Shown here in pieces: positions 1,434 to 26,736 of a stretch of 42,997 nucleotides of DNA; positions within the stretch are counted from its first letter, which is position 1; the number at the start of each line of letters is the position of its first letter. The translations under genes were made by a program, and so were the position numbers. Under the pieces are notes generated by a model that was not told where the DNA came from, made no database searches, and saw nothing but the letters and a program-made list of their open reading frames with translations. Source of the DNA: a virus (Duplodnaviria; Heunggongvirae; Uroviricota; Caudoviricetes); IMG/VR virus record IMGVR_UViG_2563366800_000007. One strand, written 5' to 3'.

Positions 1434-1672
1434 CCAACCTGCCCGGGTAGGGAGCGGAGACGGCGCATGCCGGTCATCGCTGTGGCCACGTAGCTCGCCT
1501 TTCGGTTCACCACCTCCACCCAGACTTTCACGCCTTCAACCTTCACCGTATAAGTCTCTTTCATCTTGCTTCGCCCATAGTCGCCATATGTTTGCAAGTG
1601 AGCTGCCAGCGCGATGTCGCATGCTTGGCGAGCTAAAGGTGATTGCTTACTTCCTCGATTGATCAGTCGCAT
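1430..1672 (-). CDS. Hypothetical small phage protein
   Basis: 80-aa ORF with AGGAGA Shine-Dalgarno about 6 nt upstream of the ATG; immediately downstream of recT; no recognisable motifs. Confidence 0.4.
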   Translation of the reverse strand: MRLINRGSKQSPLARQACDIALAAHLQTYGDYGRSKMKETYTVKVEGVKVWVEVVNRKASYVATAMTGMRRLRSLPGQVG

Positions 1673-1710
1673 ATAATCTCCTTGAGGGAGGGTTACCCCT
1701 CCCGGTTTCG

Positions 1711-2829
1711 TCAGGCCACGTATTCCGGTTTCATATCCGCCAGGGTGATGCTGAATTGATCGTGCAGTTCATCGCCTAAGTGACGCTTTGAAGATGCAAG
1801 CATGCGCTCGGCTTCAGCGAACCGTTCGGCTGCATGCGGCTCGTCGGGCTGGGGCAGGGATTTAATAGCCTCCTCAACCTTGTTGCGTGCATCCACTAGG
1901 TAATAACGCTTTACGGCTTTGTTTTTCAGCTCGGTGAATAGTGCGGATCCCAGCGTAGCTTTCGCCGTTTCAATGTCGGCACGCAGCGATTTGGCGCTAT
2001 CCACGTCCTGAGCAGATTCGATGCGTTCGCGGAAATCATCGGCAAGAGAGTCGACATTTACCGACGATTCCTGTGCGCTTTGCGTGGTTGTGACGGTGTC
2101 ACCTGAGATATCAGCCAGGCTAACGCGTTGCGGCGTTGGGTTGATCTCTTTTTCTGTGCGCTGTTCAATCTCATCAGGGGTGTACACACCAAGAACAACT
2201 GCAGGGCAATACAGGCGCGCCCAGTATTTGAGTGCCAGATAAGCGATCTGCTGTTTCGGGTTTGATACCCAAAGTGGAGAATTACGTGTGATTACGCTGG
2301 AGAGGAAAACAGGCTCTCCCCAGGTGATATCACTTTCACCGCGAATAACGGCACCTACCCGTACCGACAGTCCTTGTTCATCAGCACTTTCCCAACCGCG
2401 TACCATTTCTTTCTTGTCGTACGTCCCGCCACCTTTCGCAGGCTTTTTAACGGTTATCTCGCGGCTGCTGGCACATTTCGACCAGTCGCCCTCGTACTCA
2501 TAGTGAAAGCGGCCAACGATGGCGTTTGAGCTGGAGATCACCGCATTAACCAGTTGCGCTTCGTATCCCAGGACACCGTTAACCAGGTGCGTCTTTTGCG
2601 CCACGGCGTAAGGGTTCATACCCCACTGCATCGCCTGCATGATGATGGCCATGCAGTCTGCCGGATTGCCGCGGAGGTGCTCAGGCACCGTTACGGCTGC
2701 CTGTGCCATCAACCCGGCGACAGACTGAAGCTGGGTTAAAGCCTGCACGTTGAAAATGGCATTGCTGGCTGAGATCGTGTTTGGAGTCTGCTGTTCAGCG
2801 GTTACGATATTCGTGTTTTCCATCATCAT
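1711..2829 (-). CDS. recT: RecT/Red-beta family single-strand annealing recombinase
   Basis: 372-aa ORF; segments GMNPYAVAQ...GVLGYEAQ and NSPLWVSNPKQQIAYLALKYWARLY resemble conserved RecT/Bet blocks; sits just downstream of the RecE-like gene, the usual pairing. Confidence 0.75.
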   Translation of the reverse strand: MMMENTNIVTAEQQTPNTISASNAIFNVQALTQLQSVAGLMAQAAVTVPEHLRGNPADCMAIIMQAMQWGMNPYAVAQKTHLVNGVLGYEAQLVNAVISSSNAIVGRFHYEYEGDWSKCASSREITVKKPAKGGGTYDKKEMVRGWESADEQGLSVRVGAVIRGESDITWGEPVFLSSVITRNSPLWVSNPKQQIAYLALKYWARLYCPAVVLGVYTPDEIEQRTEKEINPTPQRVSLADISGDTVTTTQSAQESSVNVDSLADDFRERIESAQDVDSAKSLRADIETAKATLGSALFTELKNKAVKRYYLVDARNKVEEAIKSLPQPDEPHAAERFAEAERMLASSKRHLGDELHDQFSITLADMKPEYVA

Positions 2830-8483: not shown

Positions 8484-8876
8484 TTACTCGGCATCGCCCT
8501 TAATCCGCCGCCCCATATATTTGGCGTACAGATCGTCGAGTTCCTTCAGGCGCAGTGATACCGCCTTAAGAACTCCACCCTGATTCTCTTCGGGGAGTTG
8601 ACGGAAAAGGCGTAAAAGCTCTTGCTCATTACTTTTTAATCCATCATTGGGCCCTATATCCTGCCCCAAAACCCAGGCTAAATTCACACCAAGCGCATCA
8701 GCTAGCTTAAGTGCGGAGTTTTTCCCAATAGTTCCCCTTACAAACCAGTTGTTAACCGACTGGGATGTTACGCCACAAATTCTGGCCAGATCTGCTTTTG
8801 AGAGATGTTTACTATTCGTGATCTCATTGAGTCGTCTGACCTGTGGGTTATCTGATTCGTGTGTATTTTTTCTCAT
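8484..8876 (-). CDS. CI-like HTH repressor, paralog 1
   Basis: HTH segment LSKADLARICGVTSQSVNNWF followed by a coiled C-terminal region (LKELDDLYAKYM); leftward orientation opposite the Cro-like ydaS, typical of an immunity repressor. ATG at 8876 chosen (track ORF begins with GTG at 8891). Confidence 0.7.
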   Translation of the reverse strand: MRKNTHESDNPQVRRLNEITNSKHLSKADLARICGVTSQSVNNWFVRGTIGKNSALKLADALGVNLAWVLGQDIGPNDGLKSNEQELLRLFRQLPEENQGGVLKAVSLRLKELDDLYAKYMGRRIKGDAE

Positions 8877-8895
8877 GTACAAGAGTATCACTTAG

Positions 8896-9279
8896 CTAAT
8901 CAGCATCGCCCCTGATTCTGCGATTCATGTACTTGGCATATAGTTCATCGAGTTCCTTCAGACGCAGGGAGAAGATCCTTATCATATTCTGCTGTTCTTC
9001 TTCCGGTAACTGTCTGTAGAGCTCCAGAATACGTTGTTCATCAGGCTTAAGACCATCCTTCTCTCCAACATCCTCACCGAGTAGCCAGGCGACAGAAATA
9101 CCAACAGCGTCGGCTATGGCCAGTGCCGATTTCTTACTAATCACGCCTTTTTTGAACCAGCCGTTTACGGCCTGAGGGGTGACTCCAGCTATTCTTGCCA
9201 TGTCTGCTTTGGTAACGCCGCGATCAGTGATCTCAGTAAGGCGCTCCACCAGAACGAGGTTGGGTTCTTCTTTTCTCAT
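8896..9279 (-). CDS. CI-like HTH repressor, paralog 2
   Basis: Internal ATG at 9279 gives a 127-aa product (MRKEEPNLVLVERLTEITDRGVTKADMARIAGVTPQAVNGWF...LKELDELYAKYM) roughly half identical by eye to paralog 1; the track ORF extends upstream through the divergent promoter region and is probably not translated. Confidence 0.7.
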   Translation of the reverse strand: MRKEEPNLVLVERLTEITDRGVTKADMARIAGVTPQAVNGWFKKGVISKKSALAIADAVGISVAWLLGEDVGEKDGLKPDEQRILELYRQLPEEEQQNMIRIFSLRLKELDELYAKYMNRRIRGDAD

Positions 9280-13423: not shown

Positions 13424-13457
13424 ACAACCGTAACCTACTGCGCCACGGAGAGAAACC

Positions 13458-14057
13458 ATGGCGCACGAACTACAACTCATCAAGCATTCCTCAGGAATCC
13501 TGATCCCCGCTACGCCGGAGACCAGTGATTTACTGCAATCAAAAATCAAACTCGGCTCCGTACTGGTGGCTGAGTTCCGGCAGGTACGCAACCCGGCCTT
13601 TCACCGTCGTTTCTTCGCGTTACTCAATCTCGGTTTCGAATACTGGGAACCCACCGGCGGGGCAATCTCCTCCAACGAACGCAAGCTGGTAACCGGCTAT
13701 GCCAAGTTCCTTGCCTCATTCGCGGGAAGTGAAGCAGCACTCCTGGATGCTGCTGAGCAATATCTGGACCGCATCGCCGATAAGCGTACTGGTAGCATCT
13801 GCGCCTGTAAGTCATTCGATGCATATCGTGCATGGGTCACTATTGAGTCCGGCCATTACGACGCCATTCAGCTGCCTGACGGCACCCTCCGCAAACATCC
13901 CCGCAGTATCTCATTCGCAAATATGGATGAAACTGAGTTCCAGCAGCTGTACAAAGCCGCGCTCGATGTTCTGTGGCGATGGATACTCTCCCGATCATTT
14001 CGCAGTTGTGAAGAGGCAGAAAACGCCGCCGCCCAGCTGATGAGCTTTGCGGGGTGA
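13458..14057 (+). CDS. Conserved lambdoid nin-region protein (DUF1367-like)
   Basis: 199-aa product (MAHELQLIKHSSGILIPATPETSDLLQSKIKLGSVL...FANMDETEFQQLYKAALDVLWRWIL) resembles proteins found between replication and Q genes in enterobacterial prophages; assignment from recall. Confidence 0.6.
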   Translation: MAHELQLIKHSSGILIPATPETSDLLQSKIKLGSVLVAEFRQVRNPAFHRRFFALLNLGFEYWEPTGGAISSNERKLVTGYAKFLASFAGSEAALLDAAEQYLDRIADKRTGSICACKSFDAYRAWVTIESGHYDAIQLPDGTLRKHPRSISFANMDETEFQQLYKAALDVLWRWILSRSFRSCEEAENAAAQLMSFAG

Positions 14058-14263
14058 TGGCGATGAAATTTTCCTGGTTCCACCATCACGAATGCACCAC
14101 CGAACAGGCCGACGAGCTGGTGGAGAAATACCGGGCGCGCGGTGTAAAGACAGAGCGCAGCCTGAATCGCGACAACATCACCTGGACCGTCAGCGCGCAA
14201 TTGCCGGAAGGCGATAACGCGCCTCGCCCGAGCCGGGTATGGCAAAGCAAGGCGTGGGGGTGA
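14054..14263 (+). CDS. Hypothetical small nin-region protein
   Basis: 69-aa ORF whose ATG overlaps the upstream stop (ATGA); no recognisable motifs. Confidence 0.4.
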   Translation: MMAMKFSWFHHHECTTEQADELVEKYRARGVKTERSLNRDNITWTVSAQLPEGDNAPRPSRVWQSKAWG

Positions 14264-14265
14264 GC

Positions 14266-14556
14266 ATGGCAAATTTACGCAAAGAGGCTCGTGGTCGTGA
14301 TTGTCAGGTTCGAATTCCCGGCGTCTGCAACGGTAACCCGGAAACGTCTGTACTGGCGCACATTCGCCTGGCCGGGTTATGTGGCACCGGAATCAAACCG
14401 CCTGATCTGATTGCCACCATTGCATGCTCTGCCTGTCACGACGAGATCGACCGCCGTACACATTTTGTCGATGCTGAGTATGCTAAAGAATGCGCGCTGG
14501 AAGGTATGGCGAGAACGCAGGTTATCTGGCTGAAAGAGGGGGTAATCAAGGCGTGA
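14266..14556 (+). CDS. YbcO-like (DUF1364) Cys-rich putative nuclease
   Basis: [35 protein letters not shown]...CSACHDEID with conserved Cys and His; GGGGGTGA ribosome-binding site; directly upstream of rusA as in DLP12-type prophages. Start 14266 (track ORF begins at 14239). Confidence 0.6.
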
Positions 14557-14915
14557 ATACTTACAACATCACATTGCCCTGGCCGCCGAGCAATAACCGC
14601 TACTACCGCCATAATCGCGGGCGCACGCACATCAGCGCAGAAGGGCAGGCATACCGCGATAACGTCGCCCGAATCATTAAAAACGCAATGCTGGATATCG
14701 GTCTGGCTATGCCTGTGAAAATCCGCATTGAGTGCCACATGCCGGATCGCCGTCGCCGTGACCTGGATAATCTGCAAAAGGCCGCTTTTGACGCACTCAC
14801 CAAAGCAGGTTTCTGGCTGGACGATGCTCAGGTCGTTGATTATCGCGTTGTGAAGATGCCCGTTACCAAAGGTGGAAAGCTGGAACTGACAATCACCGGG
14901 CTGGAGGCCGTATGA
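14553..14915 (+). CDS. rusA: RusA Holliday-junction resolvase
   Basis: From the GTG at 14553 the product [100 protein letters not shown] is near-identical to E. coli RusA as recalled; GTGA overlap with the upstream stop. Confidence 0.9.
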
Positions 14916-15049
14916 CATTTGAATCCTGTTTTTCCGATCACCTCCGCGTTCGCTGGCAGCGGCTTCGCTTATACCACTTTCCCGGCTCTGTGCTAACGGA
15001 CTACCGGATACTGAAGAACTACATCAAAACCATAGGCGGTGCAGTATGA
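14912..15049 (+). CDS. YlcG-like 45-aa protein
   Basis: Hand-translated [45 protein letters not shown]; ATGA overlap with the rusA stop and with the next start; same position as ylcG between rusA and Q in DLP12. Confidence 0.5.
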
Positions 15050-15735
15050 ATACTCAATTTCTCGAATACGTGCGCCAGCAGTTGATGGTGGCCACCGCCG
15101 ATTTAAGTGGTGCGACGAAAGGGCAGTTGATGGCGTGGCTTGAAAACGCGCAGTTCGATACGGGAACGTTTAAACGTAAAAAGCCTCGAGTGCTGGATGA
15201 AGTGACCGGGGAAATGATTACGCTGGATAACCCGCCAATACCGGGCAAGCAGTCGCATGCCAAGGGTTCGCATATTCCCCTGGTGCAGCCGGTTGAATAC
15301 TCCAGCGCATCGTGGCGCCGCGCACTGATGTCACTCGAAGAACACCAGAAAGCGTGGCTGCTATGGAACTATAGCGAGAACGTGCGCTGGTGCTATCAGG
15401 TGGAAATCACTCAATGGGCGTGGGCAGAGTTCCGGGAGCAGCTCGGCGCGAAGAAGGTGGCCGGCAAAACGATGGAGCGCCTGAAGAAGCTTGTCTGGCT
15501 CGCGGCTCAGGACGTGAAAGCAGAGCTGGCAGGGCGTGAGATGTACGAATATCAGGCGCTGGCGTCGCTGGTTGGCGTAACGCCAAAAAACTGGTCAGAG
15601 ACCTTTACTGACCGCTGGGTTGAGATGCGCAGCATCTTCCTGCGACTGGATAGCGGGGCTTTATTGCAGGTTACGCGATCACGTTCACAACAAAAGGCGA
15701 CAAATTTAGACTCAAGTCTTGCAAAACTGGATTGA
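15046..15735 (+). CDS. Putative late antiterminator (Q-like), assigned mainly by position
   Basis: 229-aa ORF at the end of the nin operon, followed by a terminator, a strong promoter and a second terminator-like hairpin (the PR-prime/tR-prime layout); sequence family not confirmed. Confidence 0.5.
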   Translation: MNTQFLEYVRQQLMVATADLSGATKGQLMAWLENAQFDTGTFKRKKPRVLDEVTGEMITLDNPPIPGKQSHAKGSHIPLVQPVEYSSASWRRALMSLEEHQKAWLLWNYSENVRWCYQVEITQWAWAEFREQLGAKKVAGKTMERLKKLVWLAAQDVKAELAGREMYEYQALASLVGVTPKNWSETFTDRWVEMRSIFLRLDSGALLQVTRSRSQQKATNLDSSLAKLD

Positions 15736-15800
15736 AACGCATATATTTCATGTAAATCTGATATCGTCGCCATAGCTTCGTAGGTCGACAAAGAATTAAG

Positions 15801-15824
15801 AACCCGCCATCGAGCGGGTTTTTT
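15801..15824 (+). terminator. Rho-independent terminator after the Q-like gene
   Basis: Stem cccgc / gcggg with a 6-nt loop, followed by TTTTTT. Confidence 0.6.
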
Positions 15825-15924
15825 GTCGAAACTTTGTTTTTATATTTGGATTGTTACGTGCATCAAAAAAGATGATGAATAATCCAAAAAAGCCGTTTTT
15901 ATGAGCTTTTAATCCCTTTTTTAC

Positions 15925-15954
15925 TTGTCAAATCTGTAATTGACTCGCTATAGT
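15925..15954 (+). promoter_or_regulatory. Candidate late promoter (PR-prime-like): TTGTCA - 18 bp - TATAGT
   Basis: Near-consensus -35 and -10 hexamers read directly; positioned downstream of the Q-like gene and upstream of the late and lysis genes. Confidence 0.45.
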
Positions 15955-15985
15955 CTGTTTAGTTCTTTATCAAAAAGACTCTTTT

Positions 15986-16012
15986 AAAGCCTCGTTTTGA
16001 GGCTTTTCGTGT
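15986..16012 (+). terminator. tR-prime-like hairpin (aaagcctc / gaggcttt) with a U-rich tail
   Basis: 8-bp stem and short loop about 30 nt downstream of the putative late promoter; the tail UUCGUGUAUUU is only moderately U-rich. Confidence 0.4.
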
Positions 16013-16032
16013 ATTTAAAGACCGTAAATCAC

Positions 16033-16073
16033 TACATCTTGTGTTTGTTGTTTTGTTTTTGAGCTAGATGTAG
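16033..16073 (+). promoter_or_regulatory. Leader stem-loop (8-bp arms CTACATCT / AGATGTAG, U/G-rich 25-nt loop) just upstream of the first late ORF
   Basis: Read directly; ends 8 nt before the GAGGGA ribosome-binding site of the 16094 ORF. Confidence 0.35.
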
Positions 16074-16093
16074 CTATAACGAGGGACAAAATC

Positions 16094-16294
16094 ATGGGCG
16101 CTGCAGAATTTTACGAAAAAGTAGGTATTAAATCAGAGGAACTCCATAAAGGTGAATCTGTACAACACTATGCTATGCGCGTTCTTGCTCAGCAAGACGA
16201 CCAGGCTATACGTAGTGGTGTTCTATACTCCTACAGCACTGTAAGTTCAGTTGAAGCTGTAGAGCAACAATCTCATCAACTGTACTCATATTGA
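16094..16294 (+). CDS. Hypothetical 66-aa protein (first gene of the late-leader moron)
   Basis: GAGGGA Shine-Dalgarno 8 nt upstream of the ATG; AT-rich; no recognisable motifs. Confidence 0.45.
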   Translation: MGAAEFYEKVGIKSEELHKGESVQHYAMRVLAQQDDQAIRSGVLYSYSTVSSVEAVEQQSHQLYSY

Positions 16295-16306
16295 TAAAAG
16301 AAGAAC

Positions 16307-17206
16307 ATGCCAAATTGGATAGACGTGTTGGGCGAGATGGGTACTATTGCTCAACGTACACCAGCGGATGAGGTTCGCCACAAGTACTTACGAGAGTTGT
16401 CGAAGCATACAGGCCGAAACGTAATTTCATATTACTCAGGCTTCCTCCAGAAGGGGGGGCCTGGGTTGCAGCATTTAATACAAATGTCAGATGACGATAA
16501 AAATGGTCTTATGTCAGCCATTAACGGCTTAGACACGTCATTAGGGCTGGATATCTTGCTTCATACCCCAGGGGGAGATATTGCAGCATTGGAATCTATT
16601 GGTCATTATCTTCGTTCAAAATTTGGGACCAATATCCGGGCAATTGTTCCTATGATCTCAATGAGTTGTGGGACCATGTTGGCTTGCTGTGCCGAACAGA
16701 TTGTATTGGGCAAACAGTCAAATTTGGGGCCAATTGATCCGCAGCTTGGTGGTTTATCATCTCATGCGATCATAGAAGAGTATGAGCGAGCTAAGAAAGA
16801 GATTTCTGAAAATGCTGCAGCGATCCAATGGTGGCAATTTACTCTTCAAAAGCTAAACCCGACTCTCATTGGTGAATGTGAAAAGGCTATTGTTTGGGCT
16901 AATGAAATAGTACAAAAATGGCTGTGTACTGGTATGTTTGCAGGTCATGCTAACGCTCAAGATAAGGCTAAGCGAATTTGTGATGAGCTAAACAATCATC
17001 ATACAACCTATGCGCATGCTAGACATATTCATCTGGATAAAGCGCAAAGCATTGGTTTGAACATTATGGAGCTGGAGAGCGACCAAACTCTGCAGGATCT
17101 TGTGCTGACTATACATCATTGCTACATGCATTCATTTGGTACGAGTCCTGCTGCGAAAATTATTGAAAATCATAATGGCAGCACGATGATGTGGAATATT
17201 CGCTAA
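16307..17206 (+). CDS. ClpP/crotonase-fold serine peptidase (SDH / S49-like family)
   Basis: 299 aa; LLHTPGGDIAALES resembles the ClpP/SppA oxyanion-hole motif and IVPMISMSCGTMLACCAEQIVLG the nucleophile-serine block; AT-rich; starts 12 bp after the small ORF and ends at a strong terminator. Confidence 0.7.
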   Translation: MPNWIDVLGEMGTIAQRTPADEVRHKYLRELSKHTGRNVISYYSGFLQKGGPGLQHLIQMSDDDKNGLMSAINGLDTSLGLDILLHTPGGDIAALESIGHYLRSKFGTNIRAIVPMISMSCGTMLACCAEQIVLGKQSNLGPIDPQLGGLSSHAIIEEYERAKKEISENAAAIQWWQFTLQKLNPTLIGECEKAIVWANEIVQKWLCTGMFAGHANAQDKAKRICDELNNHHTTYAHARHIHLDKAQSIGLNIMELESDQTLQDLVLTIHHCYMHSFGTSPAAKIIENHNGSTMMWNIR

Positions 17207-17228
17207 ACGATATATCCTCGAATCACAT

Positions 17229-17255
17229 AAGGCCACCTTCGGGTGGCCTTTTTTA
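17229..17255 (+). terminator. Strong rho-independent terminator
   Basis: Perfect 7-bp GC-rich stem ggccacc / ggtggcc with a ttcg loop, followed by TTTTTT. Confidence 0.75.
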
Positions 17256-17300
17256 TTCCCCTCATTCCTGAGAGGACTCACAGCAATAAGAGGGGGCTTA

Positions 17301-17696
17301 ATGTCCGATCCTGTTTCTGGCACTACGGTCGCGGCTGGTGGCCTGATGGGAGCCAGCGTATTTGGTCTTGCAACCGGTATTGATTATGGCGTGGTATTTG
17401 GCGCATTCGCTGGTGCAGTATTTTATGTAGCGACAGCGGCAAATATCACACGAGTACGATTGATTGCTTACTTCATGACGTCATTCATTGTTGGCGTTCT
17501 TGCCGCTGGACTGGTGGGTTCAAAGCTGTCACAGGCTACCGGGTATAGTGACAGACCATTAGACGCACTTGGTGCTGTTGTAGTGGCGGCGATGACAATC
17601 AAAGTGCTCACATTTTTCAACAGTCAGGATTTGGGAAGCCTGTTCAGTATTCTTTCGCGATTCCGTGGAGGAGGGGCCAGCAATGGTAACAAGTGA
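17301..17696 (+). CDS. Holin-like membrane protein
   Basis: 131 aa with several hydrophobic helices (GLMGASVFGLATGIDYGVVFGAFAGAVFYVA..., FIVGVLAAGLVG...); first gene of the lysis cassette with an AGAGGGGG ribosome-binding site. Confidence 0.6.
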   Translation: MSDPVSGTTVAAGGLMGASVFGLATGIDYGVVFGAFAGAVFYVATAANITRVRLIAYFMTSFIVGVLAAGLVGSKLSQATGYSDRPLDALGAVVVAAMTIKVLTFFNSQDLGSLFSILSRFRGGGASNGNK

Positions 17697-17964
17697 TCCG
17701 TCAGCGATGGTGAATGCAGGTATTTGTGCGGTCATCGTCCTTGTCCTGATGTTCTACCAGCGTGAAGGGGCAAGACATCGCCCCGCTATATCATTGCTGG
17801 CGTACTTCGTTGTGCTGGTTTATGCCAGCGTTCCATTCCGATATCTGTTCGGCCTCTACCAGGAGTCACACTGGATGGTGGTCATCGTAAACCTTCTTAT
17901 TTGCGCTGCCGTGTTATGGGCTCGTGGGAATGTGGCGCGTCTCGTTGATACGCTGAGGCATTAA
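17683..17964 (+). CDS. Second holin-like or antiholin membrane protein
   Basis: 93-aa product from the ATG at 17683 (GGAGGAGG upstream) with two or three hydrophobic helices; overlaps the preceding stop. Track ORF begins at 17665. Confidence 0.5.
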   Translation: MVTSDPSAMVNAGICAVIVLVLMFYQREGARHRPAISLLAYFVVLVYASVPFRYLFGLYQESHWMVVIVNLLICAAVLWARGNVARLVDTLRH

Positions 17965-18581
17965 TGAACCAATCACAATTTCAACAGGCGGCTGGTGTAA
18001 GCGCCGGGTTAGCTACGCGCTGGTTTCCGCACATTGACGCGGCAATGAAAGAGTTCGGCATTGTTAAGCCTGAAGACCAGGCAATGTTTATTGCTCAGTC
18101 AGGACATGAATCAGCGGGATTCTCTGCGCTGGTGGAGAGCTTCAACTACACCCCAGCCGCTCTGCTGACCACATTTGGACGCCGCATTACGAACTATCAG
18201 GCATATATGCTTGGGCGTGACAAAGAAAAAGGGCACGTAGCCAATCAGCCAGCCATTGCAAATCTGGTGTACAGCAATCGCCTCGGTAACAAAGCATCAG
18301 GCGATGGGTGGAAATATCGTGGCCGTGGGCTGATTCAGATTACCGGTCTTGATAATTACCGCCGCTGCGGAACGGGATTAAAACTGGATTTAGTCAGTAA
18401 TCCTGAGTTGCTGGAAAAGGATATCAACGCGGCACGTTCAGCTGCATGGTTCTACGCCACCAGCGGATGCCTGAGCTATTCCGGCGATCTGGTTCGCATC
18501 ACCCAGATCATCAATGGTGGACAGAACGGCATTAACGACCGTCGTGCACGCTACGCCAAAGCAAAAGCCGCACTGGTATGA
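17964..18581 (+). CDS. Endolysin, glycoside hydrolase family 19 (chitinase-like)
   Basis: FIAQSGHESAGF ... YRGRGLIQITGLDNY blocks are typical of GH19 phage endolysins; ATGA overlap with the upstream gene. Confidence 0.8.
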   Translation: MNQSQFQQAAGVSAGLATRWFPHIDAAMKEFGIVKPEDQAMFIAQSGHESAGFSALVESFNYTPAALLTTFGRRITNYQAYMLGRDKEKGHVANQPAIANLVYSNRLGNKASGDGWKYRGRGLIQITGLDNYRRCGTGLKLDLVSNPELLEKDINAARSAAWFYATSGCLSYSGDLVRITQIINGGQNGINDRRARYAKAKAALV

Positions 18582-18588
18582 GGTCGCT

Positions 18589-18864
18589 ATGGGACTTGAA
18601 ATGATTATCGGCCTGGCTGTTGCTGTGCTGGCTGCAATTGCAGGTGCTTTTGGTCTGGGTAAATCGCGCGGTACTAACATCGCTGAGACAAAAGCGGACC
18701 AGCAACGCACTGAAGAACGTGCAACAGCTACTGAAGCTGTTGCTGAACGCCGGGTAGAAACAACGAAAGAGGCCAGCAATGTACAGCAGAGTGTTAACCA
18801 TATGCTTGGCGACGATGTTGATCGTGAGCTGCGCAACAACTGGACCCGCCCCGGTAGTCGTTGA
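18589..18864 (+). CDS. i-spanin (Rz-like)
   Basis: N-terminal transmembrane helix (MGLEMIIGLAVAVLAAIAGAFGL) followed by a charged periplasmic region; directly after the endolysin. Start 18589 (track ORF begins at 18514). Confidence 0.65.
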   Translation: MGLEMIIGLAVAVLAAIAGAFGLGKSRGTNIAETKADQQRTEERATATEAVAERRVETTKEASNVQQSVNHMLGDDVDRELRNNWTRPGSR

Positions 18865-19030
18865 TACCGCCTGTGATTGGGTAAAGCCCATCTATCTTAC
18901 TGACCACGATATTGCCGTTATGGATAAGCAGACGAAGCGCGACATCCTAGTGCATAACAAAGCATGGAAGGTGAACTGTAATCCCAAAAAGGTAAAGACG
19001 AGCACTCTAAAATTTGTGGACAAGCCATGA
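18779..19030 (+). CDS. o-spanin (Rz1-like) lipoprotein, overlapping the i-spanin gene in another frame
   Basis: Signal peptide with a lipobox-like LIVSC followed by a Pro-rich stretch; the gene starts inside the i-spanin gene, the classic nested arrangement. Confidence 0.65.
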   Translation: MYSRVLTICLATMLIVSCATTGPAPVVVDTACDWVKPIYLTDHDIAVMDKQTKRDILVHNKAWKVNCNPKKVKTSTLKFVDKP

Positions 19031-19092
19031 AGTACCCGTTATCCTTTCTATAGGATTCCAAAGGAATACCATAGGAAACCAAAGGTAACATT

Positions 19093-19344
19093 ATGGCAAA
19101 AACATATTTCCCCATCGAAGACTCTGTAGAGTTAGTGACAGCATCTAAACCACACCCAAGTAACACGCATTACAAAGTTTCTCGTGGAACTGAAATCTGG
19201 GATGGTGAAAATGTTGAGGTAATCAAAGTTCAGATGGTTTACAACGGCGAAGTGGCCGGAAGAAGAAGCCCTTCATATCCCGTTGGGACTGATGATTATC
19301 AACGTGTCCATTTAGCTATAGAAAAAATCATCAGGTCAAGATAA
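19093..19344 (+). CDS. Hypothetical 83-aa protein (monocistronic moron)
   Basis: ORF followed 8 bp later by a rho-independent terminator; no recognisable motifs. Confidence 0.4.
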   Translation: MAKTYFPIEDSVELVTASKPHPSNTHYKVSRGTEIWDGENVEVIKVQMVYNGEVAGRRSPSYPVGTDDYQRVHLAIEKIIRSR

Positions 19345-19351
19345 AAGCAAA

Positions 19352-19374
19352 AGGTCGCTTAGGCGGCCTTTTTT
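19352..19374 (+). terminator. Rho-independent terminator
   Basis: Stem aggtcgc / gcggcct (one G-U pair) with a ttag loop, followed by TTTTT. Confidence 0.6.
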
Positions 19375-19582
19375 CATCGATAATACATTCACTGGGTTAT
19401 ATCCAATCCCGTGGTTGAGAGGCATGCTGTATTGCTACTCGACTAACTGCATTACAGAAAGCATTCACTGAGTGCCTGCGATAATGCAAATTGACGGACT
19501 CGTCAGAAATCCTTTACAAAACATGATGTTGAATTAAATTGTTGCGTGGGTTAGCTTGAGGTTAGTTCACACAGGAGGTCAT

Positions 19583-19825
19583 ATGTCACAATCAGCGCTT
19601 GCTACTGAATTAGAACTCACTGACGATGAGTTGGATTCCATACCTCTATCACCTGAAGACCTTGAGGAGAATACAGGGCATTCAGGCGATATGGTATATG
19701 AGTACTATTTCTATGTTCCCGATACTACCCCTGAAGATATTCTTAGCAAGAAAGGATGGGAAATAGGTGAGTGTGTTTACTTATCTATTAATGTTTTTGA
19801 TGACCCGGATTCGGAGCAAGAATAG
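19583..19825 (+). CDS. Strongly acidic 80-aa protein (monocistronic moron)
   Basis: AGGAGG Shine-Dalgarno 5 nt upstream of the ATG; about 22 Asp/Glu against 2 Lys by hand count; bracketed by terminators. Track ORF begins at 19556. Confidence 0.45.
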   Translation: MSQSALATELELTDDELDSIPLSPEDLEENTGHSGDMVYEYYFYVPDTTPEDILSKKGWEIGECVYLSINVFDDPDSEQE

Positions 19826-19842
19826 AACGATAAGCATAATGC

Positions 19843-19864
19843 ACCGCCTCCGGGCGGTTTTTTT
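19843..19864 (+). terminator. Rho-independent terminator
   Basis: Stem accgcc / ggcggt with a tccg loop, followed by TTTTTTT. Confidence 0.7.
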
Positions 19865-19886
19865 ATGTCAGTACACTGGAGCGTTT

Positions 19887-20525
19887 ATGGCAACACTCAA
19901 AGACCTTTCTCAGCAATTAAAGAAGGTACAAAAGCAGGTGCCATATGCTACAGCACTAGCTATGACAAAAGTTGTTCGTCAAATAGAAACGGCACAGAAA
20001 ACAGCGTTCGAACGACATCTGGAGAGCCCGACACCGTTTACCGTTAAATCAGTTGGTTCGGTGGCGGCAAGGAAGAACAACCTGACTGCAAAGGTTTTTG
20101 TCCGCGATACCGCGGCTGGTTATCTGGAACCATTCGAGTTAGGTGGAGAGCATAAGCTCAATAGCCAAGCGCTATTGAACCCCAAGAACGTCAAGCTAAA
20201 CAAATACGGCAACATGCCGCGTAATAAGCTCTCACAGCTTAAAGCAAAGGAAAATGTATTCGTAGGTGAGGTTGATGGCGTTAACGCTGTCTGGCAGCGT
20301 AAGAAGCCGATGAAAGCTAAGAAGCGACGGGCCAAACGTTCCGCTAACGGGACGCGAAGACCGAAACGCAAACAGCGTTCTCCAAAGCTTTTGATCCGGT
20401 TTGGTGATGCGCTACCTGTGACTCCAGTGCTGGGGTATATGGATAGGGCCCGTACCATGGCGAACGCACTGCTACCGTCTGCTTTAAATCAGGCGATAGC
20501 AGAAGCCATCAGGACGGCAAAATAA
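19887..20525 (+). CDS. Hypothetical 212-aa protein with a Lys/Arg-rich segment
   Basis: Internal ATG at 19887 with GGAG upstream; contains KKPMKAKKRRAKRSANGTRRPKRKQRSPK, suggesting nucleic-acid binding; no family recognised. Track ORF begins at 19767. Confidence 0.45.
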   Translation: MATLKDLSQQLKKVQKQVPYATALAMTKVVRQIETAQKTAFERHLESPTPFTVKSVGSVAARKNNLTAKVFVRDTAAGYLEPFELGGEHKLNSQALLNPKNVKLNKYGNMPRNKLSQLKAKENVFVGEVDGVNAVWQRKKPMKAKKRRAKRSANGTRRPKRKQRSPKLLIRFGDALPVTPVLGYMDRARTMANALLPSALNQAIAEAIRTAK

Positions 20526-20535
20526 AAGCAGTAAC

Positions 20536-21039
20536 TTATAAGTTAATTTCGCAAGCTTTTATGAAGCTGTTTACTGCAGTTGTCGATCCAGAAACATTGG
20601 CTGACATGGAATGCTGGTTTCCGCCATCCTTTGTTTGCACACCAACTAACACTTTGGATTTCGCCCCCTGAAGCTGCTTAAGCACTGTTTTTAGTTGGTC
20701 CGCGTCATCCGATTGAATCTGGAGGCTCTGAACATTACGTCTTGAAAGGGTAGCATCGAGCTTCACTGCGGTATTCCCGTCGACCTTCATTATCAGGTCC
20801 ATTGGTACCTCTGATAGTGATTCGGTGCTTTTATCCATTTCAACGTATGCCGCCGATAGCTTTTCTTTAGTGCAGTCAAACACAATGGCGCCATTGTCGG
20901 ATGAAACCTCGCCAAGCATCATTGCTTTCTTACCACCAGAGAAAAGGTCATCTTCAGTATTAGTTACCCACTGGGCATGAGCAATTGGTGATGCCAGCAC
21001 TGCGGCTACGAAAGTTATTTTGATTATATTGTTACCCAT
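20536..21039 (-). CDS. Secreted or periplasmic protein of unknown function
   Basis: ATG at 21039 preceded by AAGGAGAA; N-terminal signal peptide MGNNIIKITFVAAVLASPIAHA then QW; two Cys in the mature part; transcribed opposite to the late genes, next to cos. Confidence 0.5.
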   Translation of the reverse strand: MGNNIIKITFVAAVLASPIAHAQWVTNTEDDLFSGGKKAMMLGEVSSDNGAIVFDCTKEKLSAAYVEMDKSTESLSEVPMDLIMKVDGNTAVKLDATLSRRNVQSLQIQSDDADQLKTVLKQLQGAKSKVLVGVQTKDGGNQHSMSANVSGSTTAVNSFIKACEINL

Positions 21040-21130
21040 TACATTCTCCTTGTATTGAATAGGAATAATCATAGTCGGAGCGAATGGTCGAAGCCAATAA
21101 AAAAATGGGTCCTTCCTGAGACTTTTGTAA

Positions 21131-21160
21131 GGTACGGGCATTGCGCGCCGCGGTGTTTTC
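21131..21160. other. cosN-like GC-rich segment (candidate cohesive-end site)
   Basis: tacgggcattgcgcgccgcggtgttttcc resembles the lambda cos region (tacggggcggcgacctcgcgggttttcgc) in layout; about 170 bp upstream of the terminase small-subunit gene. Confidence 0.4.
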
Positions 21161-21183
21161 CTAGCTACAACTTTCAGATTTGT

Positions 21184-21330
21184 GTCCCATGTCCCACCTC
21201 TGGCGATCATTACGGACACCTCGCCAGCTCTGGCTATTCCAGTTTATTCCAGTGGGACATTCTGGTGGGACATGGCAAAAATGTCCCAGGCGAATGTCCC
21301 ACCCCAGAAAATGTCCCAGGTGATGTCCCA
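21184..21330. repeat. Eight copies of GTCCCA / TGGGAC (candidate terminase small-subunit binding sites, cosB-like)
   Basis: Hexamers at about 21184, 21191, 21283, 21296, 21313, 21325 (forward) and 21253, 21266 (reverse), mostly as ATGTCCCA with 12 to 17-bp spacing, ending at the terS start codon. Confidence 0.5.
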
Positions 21331-24236: not shown

Positions 24237-25873
24237 TGAATAAAGTACAGATACTGGGCTCTGATGGGCAGCCGTTGCGACAGCAGCGTCCCTCTATGCT
24301 GGTGGGGGGGAGCCGCGTACCTTATGACGCAGCTGACTCTTTCAGCGATCAACTGGCGAACTGGCAACCCGCGCTGTGGTCCCCGGACAATGAAATTAAC
24401 ATTTACCGGGATCGCATCGTGTCCCGCGCACGCGATCTGGTCCGTAATGACGGCTGGGCAAACGGTGCGGTCACACGTCTGCTGGATAATGCGGTTGGTG
24501 CCAACTTCCGCCCCATCATGAAACCCGATTACCGTGTTCTCAGAATGATCACCGGAAACAAGGCGTTTGATGCGTCCTGGGCGGAAGAGTACGGAAAAGC
24601 ACTGGACGGGCACTGGCGGACCTGGAGTAACGATCCTGGCCGGTATTGTGATGTTGAACGAAAACTCACCGTGTCGCAGATGTTACGCCTGGGATTTCGT
24701 CACAAGCTTATTGACGGGGATGCTCTGGCCATTCTCCAGTACAGAACTGACAGGCTTGGTCCCGGAAGAGGGCGTTACGCCACCACGGTACAGATTGTCG
24801 ATCCTGACCGCCTCAGTAATCCTCAGCAGAATTTCGATATGCCAAATGTCCGTGGTGGCGTTGAAATTGATGCGGACGGTGCGCCGGTTGCTTACCACAT
24901 CAGGGAGGCCCATATCGGTGACTGGTGGAGCGGGGCTAAAACCATGACGTGGCAGCGTATCCCGCGTGAAACTGACTGGGGCCGCCCGCATGTGGTTCAC
25001 GATTTTGATCATGAGCGTGGCGCGCAGCACCGTGGTAACGGCATCCTGACTCCGGTTATTCAGCGTCTGAAAATGCTGGTGAAGTATGACCAGAGTGAGC
25101 TTGAGGCAGCAATTCTTAATGCCATATTTGCCGCTTACATTGAGTCACCCTATGACCCTGCGATGGTTCAGTCTGCCCTGGGCGAGACCTATGACGAGTC
25201 GGAGTTAGGCACTTATCAGGACGGGCGTGTTGAGTTCCATAACGATCGGCGTCTGACACTTCAGAATGGTGCCCGAATGCCCATTCTTTATCCTGGTGAG
25301 AAAATCACGACGGTTAACGCGGCGCGGCCCTACAGCAATTTTGAAGTCTTCGAATCTGCTGTTCTCCGTAATTTTTCTTCAGGAACAGGGTTGTCCCCAC
25401 AGCAGGTCACCCAGGACTGGTCTGACGTTAACTACAGTTCTGCACGCTCCTCGTTGCTGGAGGCATGGAAAACACTGACTCGCCGCCGGGACGATTTTTC
25501 TACCGGCTTCGCTCAGCCCATTCTCACCGCCTTTGTTGAAGAAGTTCACGACAATGAGGATTTACCCCTGCCCGCAGGCGCACCTGATTTTGTTGACGCC
25601 AGAGCCGCGTATTCTCGCGCGCGCTGGATGGGGCCAGGGCGCGGCTGGGTGGATCCGGTTGCAGAGAAAAAAGGCGCCATTCTTGGTCTGGATGCCGGAC
25701 TTTCCACCCTCGAGATTGAGGTGGGTGAAAACGTCGGTGAAGACTGGGAAGAAGTGCTTGATCAGCGCCAGAGAGAAATTGAGTCATGTCTTAAACGCGG
25801 ATTACCGCTTCCGAGCTGGGCACAGGCTGACCAGTTTGCGAGCCAGACCATTACCGATCCGGAGGAAAAGTGA
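24236..25873 (+). CDS. Portal protein (lambda gpB family)
   Basis: 545-aa ORF between the gpW-like and prohead-protease genes; ATGA overlap with the upstream gene; assignment by size, order and general similarity. Confidence 0.8.
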   Translation: MNKVQILGSDGQPLRQQRPSMLVGGSRVPYDAADSFSDQLANWQPALWSPDNEINIYRDRIVSRARDLVRNDGWANGAVTRLLDNAVGANFRPIMKPDYRVLRMITGNKAFDASWAEEYGKALDGHWRTWSNDPGRYCDVERKLTVSQMLRLGFRHKLIDGDALAILQYRTDRLGPGRGRYATTVQIVDPDRLSNPQQNFDMPNVRGGVEIDADGAPVAYHIREAHIGDWWSGAKTMTWQRIPRETDWGRPHVVHDFDHERGAQHRGNGILTPVIQRLKMLVKYDQSELEAAILNAIFAAYIESPYDPAMVQSALGETYDESELGTYQDGRVEFHNDRRLTLQNGARMPILYPGEKITTVNAARPYSNFEVFESAVLRNFSSGTGLSPQQVTQDWSDVNYSSARSSLLEAWKTLTRRRDDFSTGFAQPILTAFVEEVHDNEDLPLPAGAPDFVDARAAYSRARWMGPGRGWVDPVAEKKGAILGLDAGLSTLEIEVGENVGEDWEEVLDQRQREIESCLKRGLPLPSWAQADQFASQTITDPEEK

Positions 25874-26736
25874 ATCTACCCCATCTGGCCCAGCGATTAT
25901 TTAACACCCCGCTGGCGCTGCACCCGAGTAAAGCCGAAGTCATCATGGCATCCGTAATGGACCGATTTGGTATCAGTAAAATCGAATCTTCTCTTGCCAT
26001 GGAGGATGACTGGTACGGATATGACGATAACCGGGGACGTGAATCCCGTAGTGATCCGGGTTATGACAATGTGCTGGGTGTCGCCGTCATCCCGATATGC
26101 GGAACGCTGGTGCAAAAACTGGGCAGTCTGCGTCCGTACAGTGGAATGACAGGGTATGACGGCATTCGTCAGGCGTTTCTTACTGCGATGGAAGATCCCG
26201 ACATTTCGGGCATTTGCCTGGATATCGACTCACCCGGCGGCGAGGTCGCTGGATGCTTCGATCTGGTTGATGTCATTTACGGCTCCCGGGGGAAAAAGCC
26301 TATCCATGCCATTCTGACGGAAAGCGCTTATTCCGCTGCGTATGCCATTGCCAGTGCAGCGGACCGGATTTCTGTTCCGCGCACCGGCGGAGTGGGTTCT
26401 GTGGGTGTGATCACCATGCACCTTGACTGGACGCAGCGGATTAAAGATGACGGTCTTAAAGTTACGATCATCACCTATGGATCCCGCAAGGCTGAAGGTT
26501 CGCCGCTGAGAGAGTTGTCAGATGAAGCTCTGGCCGCCATCCAGCAGGACATTAACACCATGGGCGAATTGTTTGTGAACACTGTTGCCAGAAACCGGGG
26601 GATTAGCGCAAAGGTTATAAAAAGTACCCAGGCCGCCTGTTTTATGGCTGCTGATGGCGTTGAAATTGGACTGGCTGATGAGGTGTGTCCTCCTGACGCT
26701 GCGTTCAAAAACTTACTTGAAAAAACAGGAGCCTGA
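25870..26736 (+). CDS. Prohead maturation protease (S49 / ClpP-fold, lambda gpC-like)
   Basis: Blocks ICLDIDSPGGEVAG and ILTESAYSAAYAIASAADRI are characteristic of S49 head proteases; GTG start overlaps the portal stop. Confidence 0.8.
   Translation: MNLPHLAQRLFNTPLALHPSKAEVIMASVMDRFGISKIESSLAMEDDWYGYDDNRGRESRSDPGYDNVLGVAVIPICGTLVQKLGSLRPYSGMTGYDGIRQAFLTAMEDPDISGICLDIDSPGGEVAGCFDLVDVIYGSRGKKPIHAILTESAYSAAYAIASAADRISVPRTGGVGSVGVITMHLDWTQRIKDDGLKVTIITYGSRKAEGSPLRELSDEALAAIQQDINTMGELFVNTVARNRGISAKVIKSTQAACFMAADGVEIGLADEVCPPDAAFKNLLEKTGA

Follow-up and report, generated by a model that had tools for sequence, protein, structure and literature searches.

Among the anti-phage systems listed by DefenseFinder is FS_HP_SDH_sah, whose architecture consists of a hypothetical protein (HP) and an SDH_sah protease, the latter name being one that we take to be an earlier identifier of the Pfam family PF01972. 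The system is reportedly an immune system encoded by phage-inducible chromosomal islands (PICIs), said to have been validated by Fillol-Salom et al. (Cell 2022). A literature search found no study of mechanism for SDH-type proteases or for the HP plus SDH system. Here we describe a two-gene cassette of this architecture in a 42,997-nucleotide (nt) stretch of viral DNA (Caudoviricetes; IMG/VR record IMGVR_UViG_2563366800_000007), which is a lambdoid prophage and is called the window hereafter at its full length. The initial annotation of this DNA had treated the cassette as uncharacterised and had assigned it to no named defence system, a view that the match to the DefenseFinder architecture overturns: the pair is a probable, rather than a demonstrated, new member of the FS_HP_SDH_sah kind.

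The cassette comprises two open reading frames (ORFs) on the same strand, 12 nt apart, located between an antiterminator Q gene and the lysis genes just as first annotated:

16094..16294, + strand: small partner protein of 66 amino acids (aa), acidic (pI 5.1) and mostly disordered; PHROG 25714; motifs EFYEKVGI, GVLYSYST and C-terminal QLYSY.
16307..17206, + strand: SDH-type ClpP-fold serine protease of 299 aa (Pfam PF01972), with predicted nucleophile S120, oxyanion motif H86-T-P-G-G90 and a His-rich helical C-terminal domain.

We propose, with moderate confidence, that this pair is an autonomous, horizontally mobile module, in which a ClpP-fold SDH protease is accompanied by an obligate, small, acidic and largely disordered partner, and which prophages carry as cargo.

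The protease matches PF01972 ('ClpP-like SDH-type serine proteinase') at 76.6 bits against a gathering score of 31.3, over residues 22-253, and an identical protein is labelled 'SDH family Clp fold serine proteinase' in RefSeq; the HP half of the architecture is represented by the conserved small hypothetical protein that adjoins it. With the NCBIfam equivalog model NF047768 (Clp_like_SDH) the protease scores 91.3 bits, below the curated cut-off of 250 bits, which places it in a related subfamily and not in the equivalog. It belongs to PHROG 11747, annotated as function unknown, and a word-indexed search returned more than 7800 homologues. A test of the core domain found structural similarity to the ClpP/crotonase fold, and weak sequence matches to the NfeD/STOPP protease PH1510 type were obtained, with NfeD1b_N (E 1e-4) and with the PDB entry 3bpp (E 0.004); the PDB profile match to ClpP is limited to residues 33-126 and ends at the serine. 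The protease has no match to Pfam CLP_protease at E<=0.1, and none to Pfam Peptidase_S49.

These results uphold the earlier reading of the protein as a ClpP-fold serine peptidase with oxyanion-hole-like and nucleophile-like blocks. Both blocks (LLHTPGGDIAALES and MISMSCGTM) are present, S120 aligns with the nucleophile serine of ClpP and of PH1510, and the core residues are invariant in 105 homologues (H86-T-x-G-G90, M119-S120-x-G-T-M124, S138, D144-P145, C191, H237, R239, H240, H270 and H271), with P88, K136, H231, H275 and H289 kept in at least 90% of them. K136 was considered with regard to the Ser-Lys dyad of S49 peptidases. The homologues have no conserved His about 25 residues past S120, as a Ser-His-Asp triad in ClpP order needs. 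A cluster of conserved His residues lies at residues 231-289 (window 16997..17173), in the helical C-terminal domain that has no PDB match; it could bind a metal or be the source of the catalytic His in a Ser-Asp-His triad. No transmembrane segment or signal peptide is predicted in the protease or in the small partner, and the protease is, as far as its sequence can tell, a soluble cytoplasmic enzyme with an intact serine-protease active-site signature.

The pairing extends far beyond enterobacteria. Relatives were collected by scanning species-representative genomes, which yielded at least 570 loci, and from the best 80, which describe the most similar members only, protease identities to the window copy range from 48 to 55%, except at one enterobacterial locus (75%); these loci come from Proteobacteria, Firmicutes, Bacteroidota, Planctomycetota, Acidobacteriota, Chloroflexota, Patescibacteria, a methanogen (an archaeon) and others. 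Conserved co-occurrence of the two genes, a check proposed with the initial annotation, was found throughout: automatic criteria place a same-strand ORF of 45-125 aa next to the protease in 81 of the 83 loci, and inspection raises this to all 83, the two apparent exceptions having a motif-bearing partner ORF concealed within an over-extended reading frame. The partner usually lies upstream of the protease, and just downstream in one clostridial clade; in many loci its stop codon overlaps or adjoins the next start. When the adjacent ORFs were compared by BLAST (E<1e-3) against a background of 5031 small ORFs of the same loci, 249 adjacent-to-adjacent hits and none to others were obtained, and no other conserved neighbour genes were found around the protease loci. 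The branches of the protease tree separate according to the type of partner and the order of the genes (0 of 2000 permutations), and hence the pair evolves as a unit. No specificity-determining protease positions were found between the two partner types at the thresholds used. Taken together, these comparisons identify the tiny protein as an obligate, homologous and co-diversifying partner of the SDH protease.

The partner itself is elusive to standard searches: no Pfam or NCBIfam model matches it, its profile recovers just 24 proteins in a word-indexed search, and jackhmmer seeded with the window protein alone converged on its own three-member clade. An exhaustive profile search of 1.84 billion proteins gave 141 representative clusters, nearly all of 52-72 aa. 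Profile-profile comparison (hhalign) joins the enterobacterial clade of the window to a large 'YSxST' clade of other phyla (Prob 91.7%, E 8e-7), pairing EFYEKxGI with xxFxxLxI and GVLYSYST with ISYSxST; enterobacterial partners have a C-terminal QLYSY/QLYTY in common, and another clade finishes in A-[KQE]-L-E. Between the window and the copy in Escherichia coli Nissle 1917 the proportion of synonymous differences is 0.67 (near saturation), that of nonsynonymous differences is 0.17 in the small ORF and 0.04 in the protease, and the ratio of nonsynonymous to synonymous rates (dN/dS) is about 0.11 for the small ORF. This comparison indicates that both genes are under purifying selection and that the partner evolves about five times faster. 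The small ORF is thus conserved and selected, and the worry raised at first annotation, that it might prove unconserved, did not materialise.

In several public records the small partner is unannotated, or a spurious ORF on the opposite strand has been called in its place. Partner ORFs missed in this way lie at 8797..8997 of our locus L083 (NZ_CP025916), at about 7730..7997 of L090 and at about 7780..7990 of L093. Because the partner is so often overlooked, automated calls of two-gene defence systems undercount this one. In another locus, the metagenomic E. coli prophage L087 (9853..10735), the protease is frameshifted into pieces of 51 and 244 aa beside an intact 69-aa partner, which shows that the partner can outlast a decaying protease.

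The arrangement recalls a classic type II toxin-antitoxin (addiction) module, with a small, acidic, disordered protein encoded first and its stop so commonly touching the next start. Such a module, in which the protease would be the toxin and the small protein a labile antitoxin, and whose main effect would be to stabilise the prophage or island, would also suit an autonomous two-gene unit on mobile elements, the intact small ORF of L087 and the position of the cassette beside HicAB in Porphyromonas phages. Gene order is reversed, however, throughout the clostridial clade, and a DNA-binding domain is not detectable in the small protein. We regard an addiction module as rather unlikely, and since addiction and defence are not exclusive it would be a sub-mechanism more than a true rival.

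The genomic surroundings of the pair show how it is carried. The window has the order integrase, RecT/exonuclease, Q, lysis genes, terminase, lambda-type portal, S49 prohead protease and capsid, and several complete E. coli genomes hold prophages identical to it. The features that frame the cassette or bear on its role are as follows:

15046..15735, + strand: antiterminator Q gene (Pfam PF06323, E 1e-101), the left boundary module.
15719..15747, + strand: PR'-like late promoter TTGCAA-17-TATATT (promoter scan), overlapping the end of Q and directly 5' of the isrJ-like RNA.
15751..15823, + strand: late-leader RNA (Rfam RF01393, isrJ) closing in a tR'-like terminator, with a hairpin at 15801..15820 and a T-run to 15826.
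17301..18581, + strand: lysis genes, two holins and a GH19 endolysin (Pfam PF16931, PF05449 and PF00182), the right boundary.
25870..26736, + strand: S49 prohead protease of the head module (Pfam Peptidase_S49, E 1.6e-27), directly 3' of the lambda-family portal.

The 73-nt leader (15751..15823) matches isrJ over its full length (model 1-75 of 75) at 58.7 bits against a gathering score of 37 (E 9e-10), and the reading of this segment as a PR'/tR' late leader, already suggested by the promoter-like and hairpin sequences at first annotation, is therefore well supported. The Rfam family isrK also matches 15751..15823, more weakly than isrJ. IsrJ and IsrK are short RNAs from Salmonella lambdoid prophages, and the match suggests that these 'island sRNAs' are terminated late-leader RNAs of Q-type prophages. 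A morphogenetic or lysis role of the cassette protease was ruled out, as an S49 prohead protease and a full set of lysis genes are encoded elsewhere in the prophage; because the S49 enzyme is encoded separately in the head module, the cassette protease is not the morphogenetic one, as the initial annotation had argued. The two proteases have no significant sequence similarity and only their fold in common. A second AT-rich stretch, between the lysis genes and terminase (18850..21300; guanine-plus-cytosine (GC) content about 0.41-0.43), contains hypothetical ORFs at 19093..19344, at 19767..20525 (no Pfam match) and, on the minus strand, at 20536..21219, and may be further cargo.

The cassette occupies the slot between Q and the holins together with regulatory elements of its own:

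15925..15954, + strand: sigma-70-like promoter TTGTCA-18-TATAGT of the cassette, the best promoter match in the region (10 of 12 positions).
15986..16006, + strand: leader hairpin 1, a terminator-like stem-loop (terminator scan) about 25 nt past the predicted start site.
16032..16073, + strand: leader hairpin 2, CTACATCT ... AGATGTAG (RNAalifold consensus), in which 16032..16039 pairs with 16066..16073, directly ahead of the ribosome-binding site; either an RNA stem or a palindromic operator.
17229..17258, + strand: intrinsic terminator closing the cassette, a 9-bp stem (17229..17250) followed by a T-run (terminator scan), common to the holin-side module.

The pair had been noted as AT-rich, and GC content indeed drops to 0.33-0.46 in 15700-17200, compared with 0.52-0.59 for the flank upstream (13450-15700) and about 0.48-0.54 on the downstream side. 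Phages of Enterobacter and Klebsiella without the cassette are about 90% identical to the window from the 3' end of Q through tR' (15500..15824), and the holin side from 17230 on is found in phage mEp390, which is likewise without it. The left flank stops at about 15824 and the right flank begins at about 17230 in such phages, each flank being found separately; an exact empty site, with left and right flanks joined, was not found among the phages searched. The GC dip and the separate occurrence of the flanks in cassette-free phages identify the cassette as inserted cargo, with bounds near 15825 and 17230. Homology to the Nissle 1917 cassette, a diverged copy of about 80% nucleotide identity, runs from near 15880 to about 17270 and includes the terminator. 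The strong terminator reported at 17229 is confirmed as to its 9-bp stem and T-run; it is not, however, exclusive to the cassette, as the same hairpin precedes the holin of mEp390. In that phage (our locus L088) the Q-to-holin slot holds a different gene, encoding a 272-aa hypothetical protein on the minus strand (1510..2328), and comparison of the two phages marks the slot as a cargo hotspot with a reusable terminator junction. With its own promoter (15925..15954) and terminator (17229..17250), a deviating GC content and flanks known without the insert, the cassette has the marks of a lambdoid 'moron', as had been suggested: it is a cargo unit of this type in the Q-to-lysis slot.

The leader was aligned among six enterobacterial cassettes, whose small proteins are often less than 50% identical (window 15923..16093; L002 8046..8216; L084 8520..8690; L083 8624..8796; L003 5622..5793; L085 9616..9785). 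All six have in common a promoter, a terminator-like hairpin, a second stem of 8-10 bp and a ribosome-binding site. The good ribosome-binding site credited to the 66-aa ORF is the Shine-Dalgarno sequence GAGGG at 16081..16085, 8 nt 5' of the ATG, and its spacing is equal in the six diverged cassettes. The -10 element GCTATAGT is intact in four of the six and the -35 is near consensus in five; the copies from the window, Nissle, L083 and Mangrovibacter preserve the promoter best. Over both leader stems, six of 17 pairs carry changes on both sides (RNAalifold), and these compensatory changes, from only six sequences, suggest that the stems are conserved. Rfam has no family for this leader, which may act as an attenuator or an operator.

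Two consequences follow for expression, which the initial annotation had placed under Q antitermination. A Q-modified, terminator-resistant polymerase must cross the cassette to reach the holins, so that the cassette would be co-transcribed with the late genes after induction, and to this extent the claim holds; with its own sigma-70-like promoter and leader, expression is probably not solely dependent on Q. In the lysogen, expression is presumably low and attenuated.

The cassette turns up in a variety of mobile elements. The protease occurs in 80 of 5426 complete E. coli genomes, where all copies examined are prophage-borne and represent four diverged cassette variants; three of these sit between Q and lysis (one of them in Nissle 1917) and the fourth between lysis and terminase. 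In Mu-like phages of Aeromonas and Shewanella the pair follows a late-transcription activator (Mor or C) and precedes the lysis genes; in Pseudomonas it adjoins a prophage integrase, in Methylomonas it forms the end of an integrative element, and a Gordonia phage has it flanked by the tail genes on one side and the immunity region on the other. Of 142 immediate neighbours six are integrases, the most frequent family, and a few are restriction-modification, HEPN or PLD genes. The protease is rare in sequenced phages (7 of 50,697) and in plasmids (4 of 72,556). One Aeromonas hydrophila Mu-like prophage (L092, 5784..8900) has the order Mor, small-ORF/SDH pair and endolysin, with a gene for a TIR_2-domain protein and a gene for a 127-aa protein upstream of Mor on the opposite strand; it is possibly a multi-system defence islet.

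These positions bear on two further explanations. The protease could be a helper of the lytic cycle, made with the late genes under Q and degrading, for example, a host defence or regulatory protein or a protein of a competitor. The placement of the cassette within the late transcription unit, from tR' to the holins, where Q-modified polymerase must transcribe it, is what such a helper would need, and the Mu-like phages use an equivalent slot, past the late activator and ahead of lysis. By contrast, the cassette's own promoter and terminator, its occurrence at sites other than late operons (beside an integrase, and within integrative elements that are not phages), its presence in so few phage records and the ability of related phages to do without it all speak against a lytic function, which we judge unlikely. 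The second explanation is virulence or host-fitness cargo analogous to Shiga toxin, as the position is equivalent to that of stx in Stx phages (established synteny) and the cassette is found in the probiotic Nissle 1917 and in clinical isolates. Both proteins are cytoplasmic, however, with no secretion signal, and a family spread over environmental bacteria from most phyla, as well as an archaeon, speaks against a role directed at the host, so that this explanation is extremely improbable.

We infer an anti-phage role from family membership, and the following model is equally inferred in what it says about the trigger, the target and the part played by the small protein. In the lysogen, the cassette would be transcribed at a low level from its own promoter through the leader with its terminator-like hairpin; after induction, Q-modified RNA polymerase would read through it toward the lysis genes, giving co-expression with the late genes. 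The protease would be the effector, and the small protein, disordered until bound, would bind it through its N-terminal helix and the Ser/Thr-rich YSxST segment, in the role of inhibitor, pseudo-substrate or sensor. When a competing phage infects the cell, the partner would be removed or altered and its control of the protease relieved; the protease would then cleave a conserved cellular or phage target and block phage production, probably by abortive infection. SppA, whose own C-termini are bound in its active site, and PH1510, which cleaves its operon partner, offer two precedents among relatives of the fold.

Several points weigh against this account. Membership in FS_HP_SDH_sah is assigned through Pfam family and architecture. 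No model of PADLOC-DB v2.0.0 matches either protein, and the neighbour genes of the protease loci are mostly housekeeping genes, with defence genes only scattered among them. AlphaFold2 (AF2) models the small partner alone at low confidence (a predicted local distance difference test score, pLDDT, of 58), with two short helices and otherwise disordered, and the binding mode is accordingly conjecture.

A more specific form of the anti-phage model can be put forward tentatively: the partner might be a fast-evolving pseudo-substrate 'fuse' or sensor that plugs the protease via YSxST, and whose removal or modification by a phage would free the protease onto a universally conserved cellular component. 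Such a target would explain why the protease of E. coli prophages still shares about 50% identity with those of Firmicutes, Patescibacteria and an archaeon. If this is true, the cassette would represent an undescribed, pan-prokaryotic mechanism of abortive infection based on a ClpP-fold protease, to which enterobacterial prophages add a layer of control in the form of a leader terminator overridden by antiterminating polymerases. The same precedents of ClpP-fold enzymes, with PH1510 cleaving the stomatin encoded in its operon and SppA (4kwb) its own C-termini, would also be compatible with a peptide-processing pair, in which the protease would process the small protein to yield a signalling or bioactive peptide and the conserved internal Ser/Thr-rich motif of the strictly paired protein could be the cleavage site. 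For such a role one misses a signal peptide or transmembrane segment in either protein and a conserved transporter, receptor or modifying enzyme nearby, and we think it quite improbable.

What is new here is the pan-phylum pairing, the partner motifs and purifying selection on the partner, the cassette's own promoter and two-hairpin leader, and the recurrent cargo contexts. If the assignment to FS_HP_SDH_sah holds, the cassette is a prophage-borne copy of that defence system, and it provides handles on the mechanism: three conserved motifs in an obligate partner of some 60-70 aa, S120 as candidate nucleophile, a His-rich C-terminal domain of which no relative has been solved, and a conserved regulatory leader. 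As a diverged cassette resides in the probiotic strain Nissle 1917, a phage-resistance phenotype would have practical relevance.

Comparison with the known ClpP-fold proteases sets the cassette enzyme apart. Different from ClpP (MEROPS S14), to which it is only 10-15% identical and whose Pfam family it does not match, it carries an additional helical domain at its C-terminus (about 130 aa, with many invariant His), and it pairs with a tiny protein, with no evidence of an AAA+ partner. It resembles SppA and the S49 phage prohead proteases (for example lambda C) in being a ClpP-fold serine peptidase found in phages, and SppA (4kwb) is among its fold hits; unlike these enzymes, it is encoded outside the head module and lacks a scaffold or capsid partner. 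The NfeD/STOPP protease PH1510 is similarly encoded beside the operon partner on which it acts, stomatin, but PH1510 is membrane-bound with a large membrane partner, whereas both cassette proteins are soluble and the partner has 66 aa. Lit/Gol-EF-Tu is a case of protease-based abortive infection, and the model proposed here would likewise have a prophage-borne protease as the effector and a conserved component of the cell as its target; Lit, however, belongs to the zinc metalloproteases and has no small partner, whereas the cassette encodes a serine protease with one. In architecture the likeness is to FS_HP_SDH_sah, with which the window pair shares its two genes, an HP and a PF01972 protease, and its location on a phage-related mobile element of Enterobacteria, differing in that the described system is said to reside on PICIs and the window pair sits in the late leader of a lambdoid prophage.

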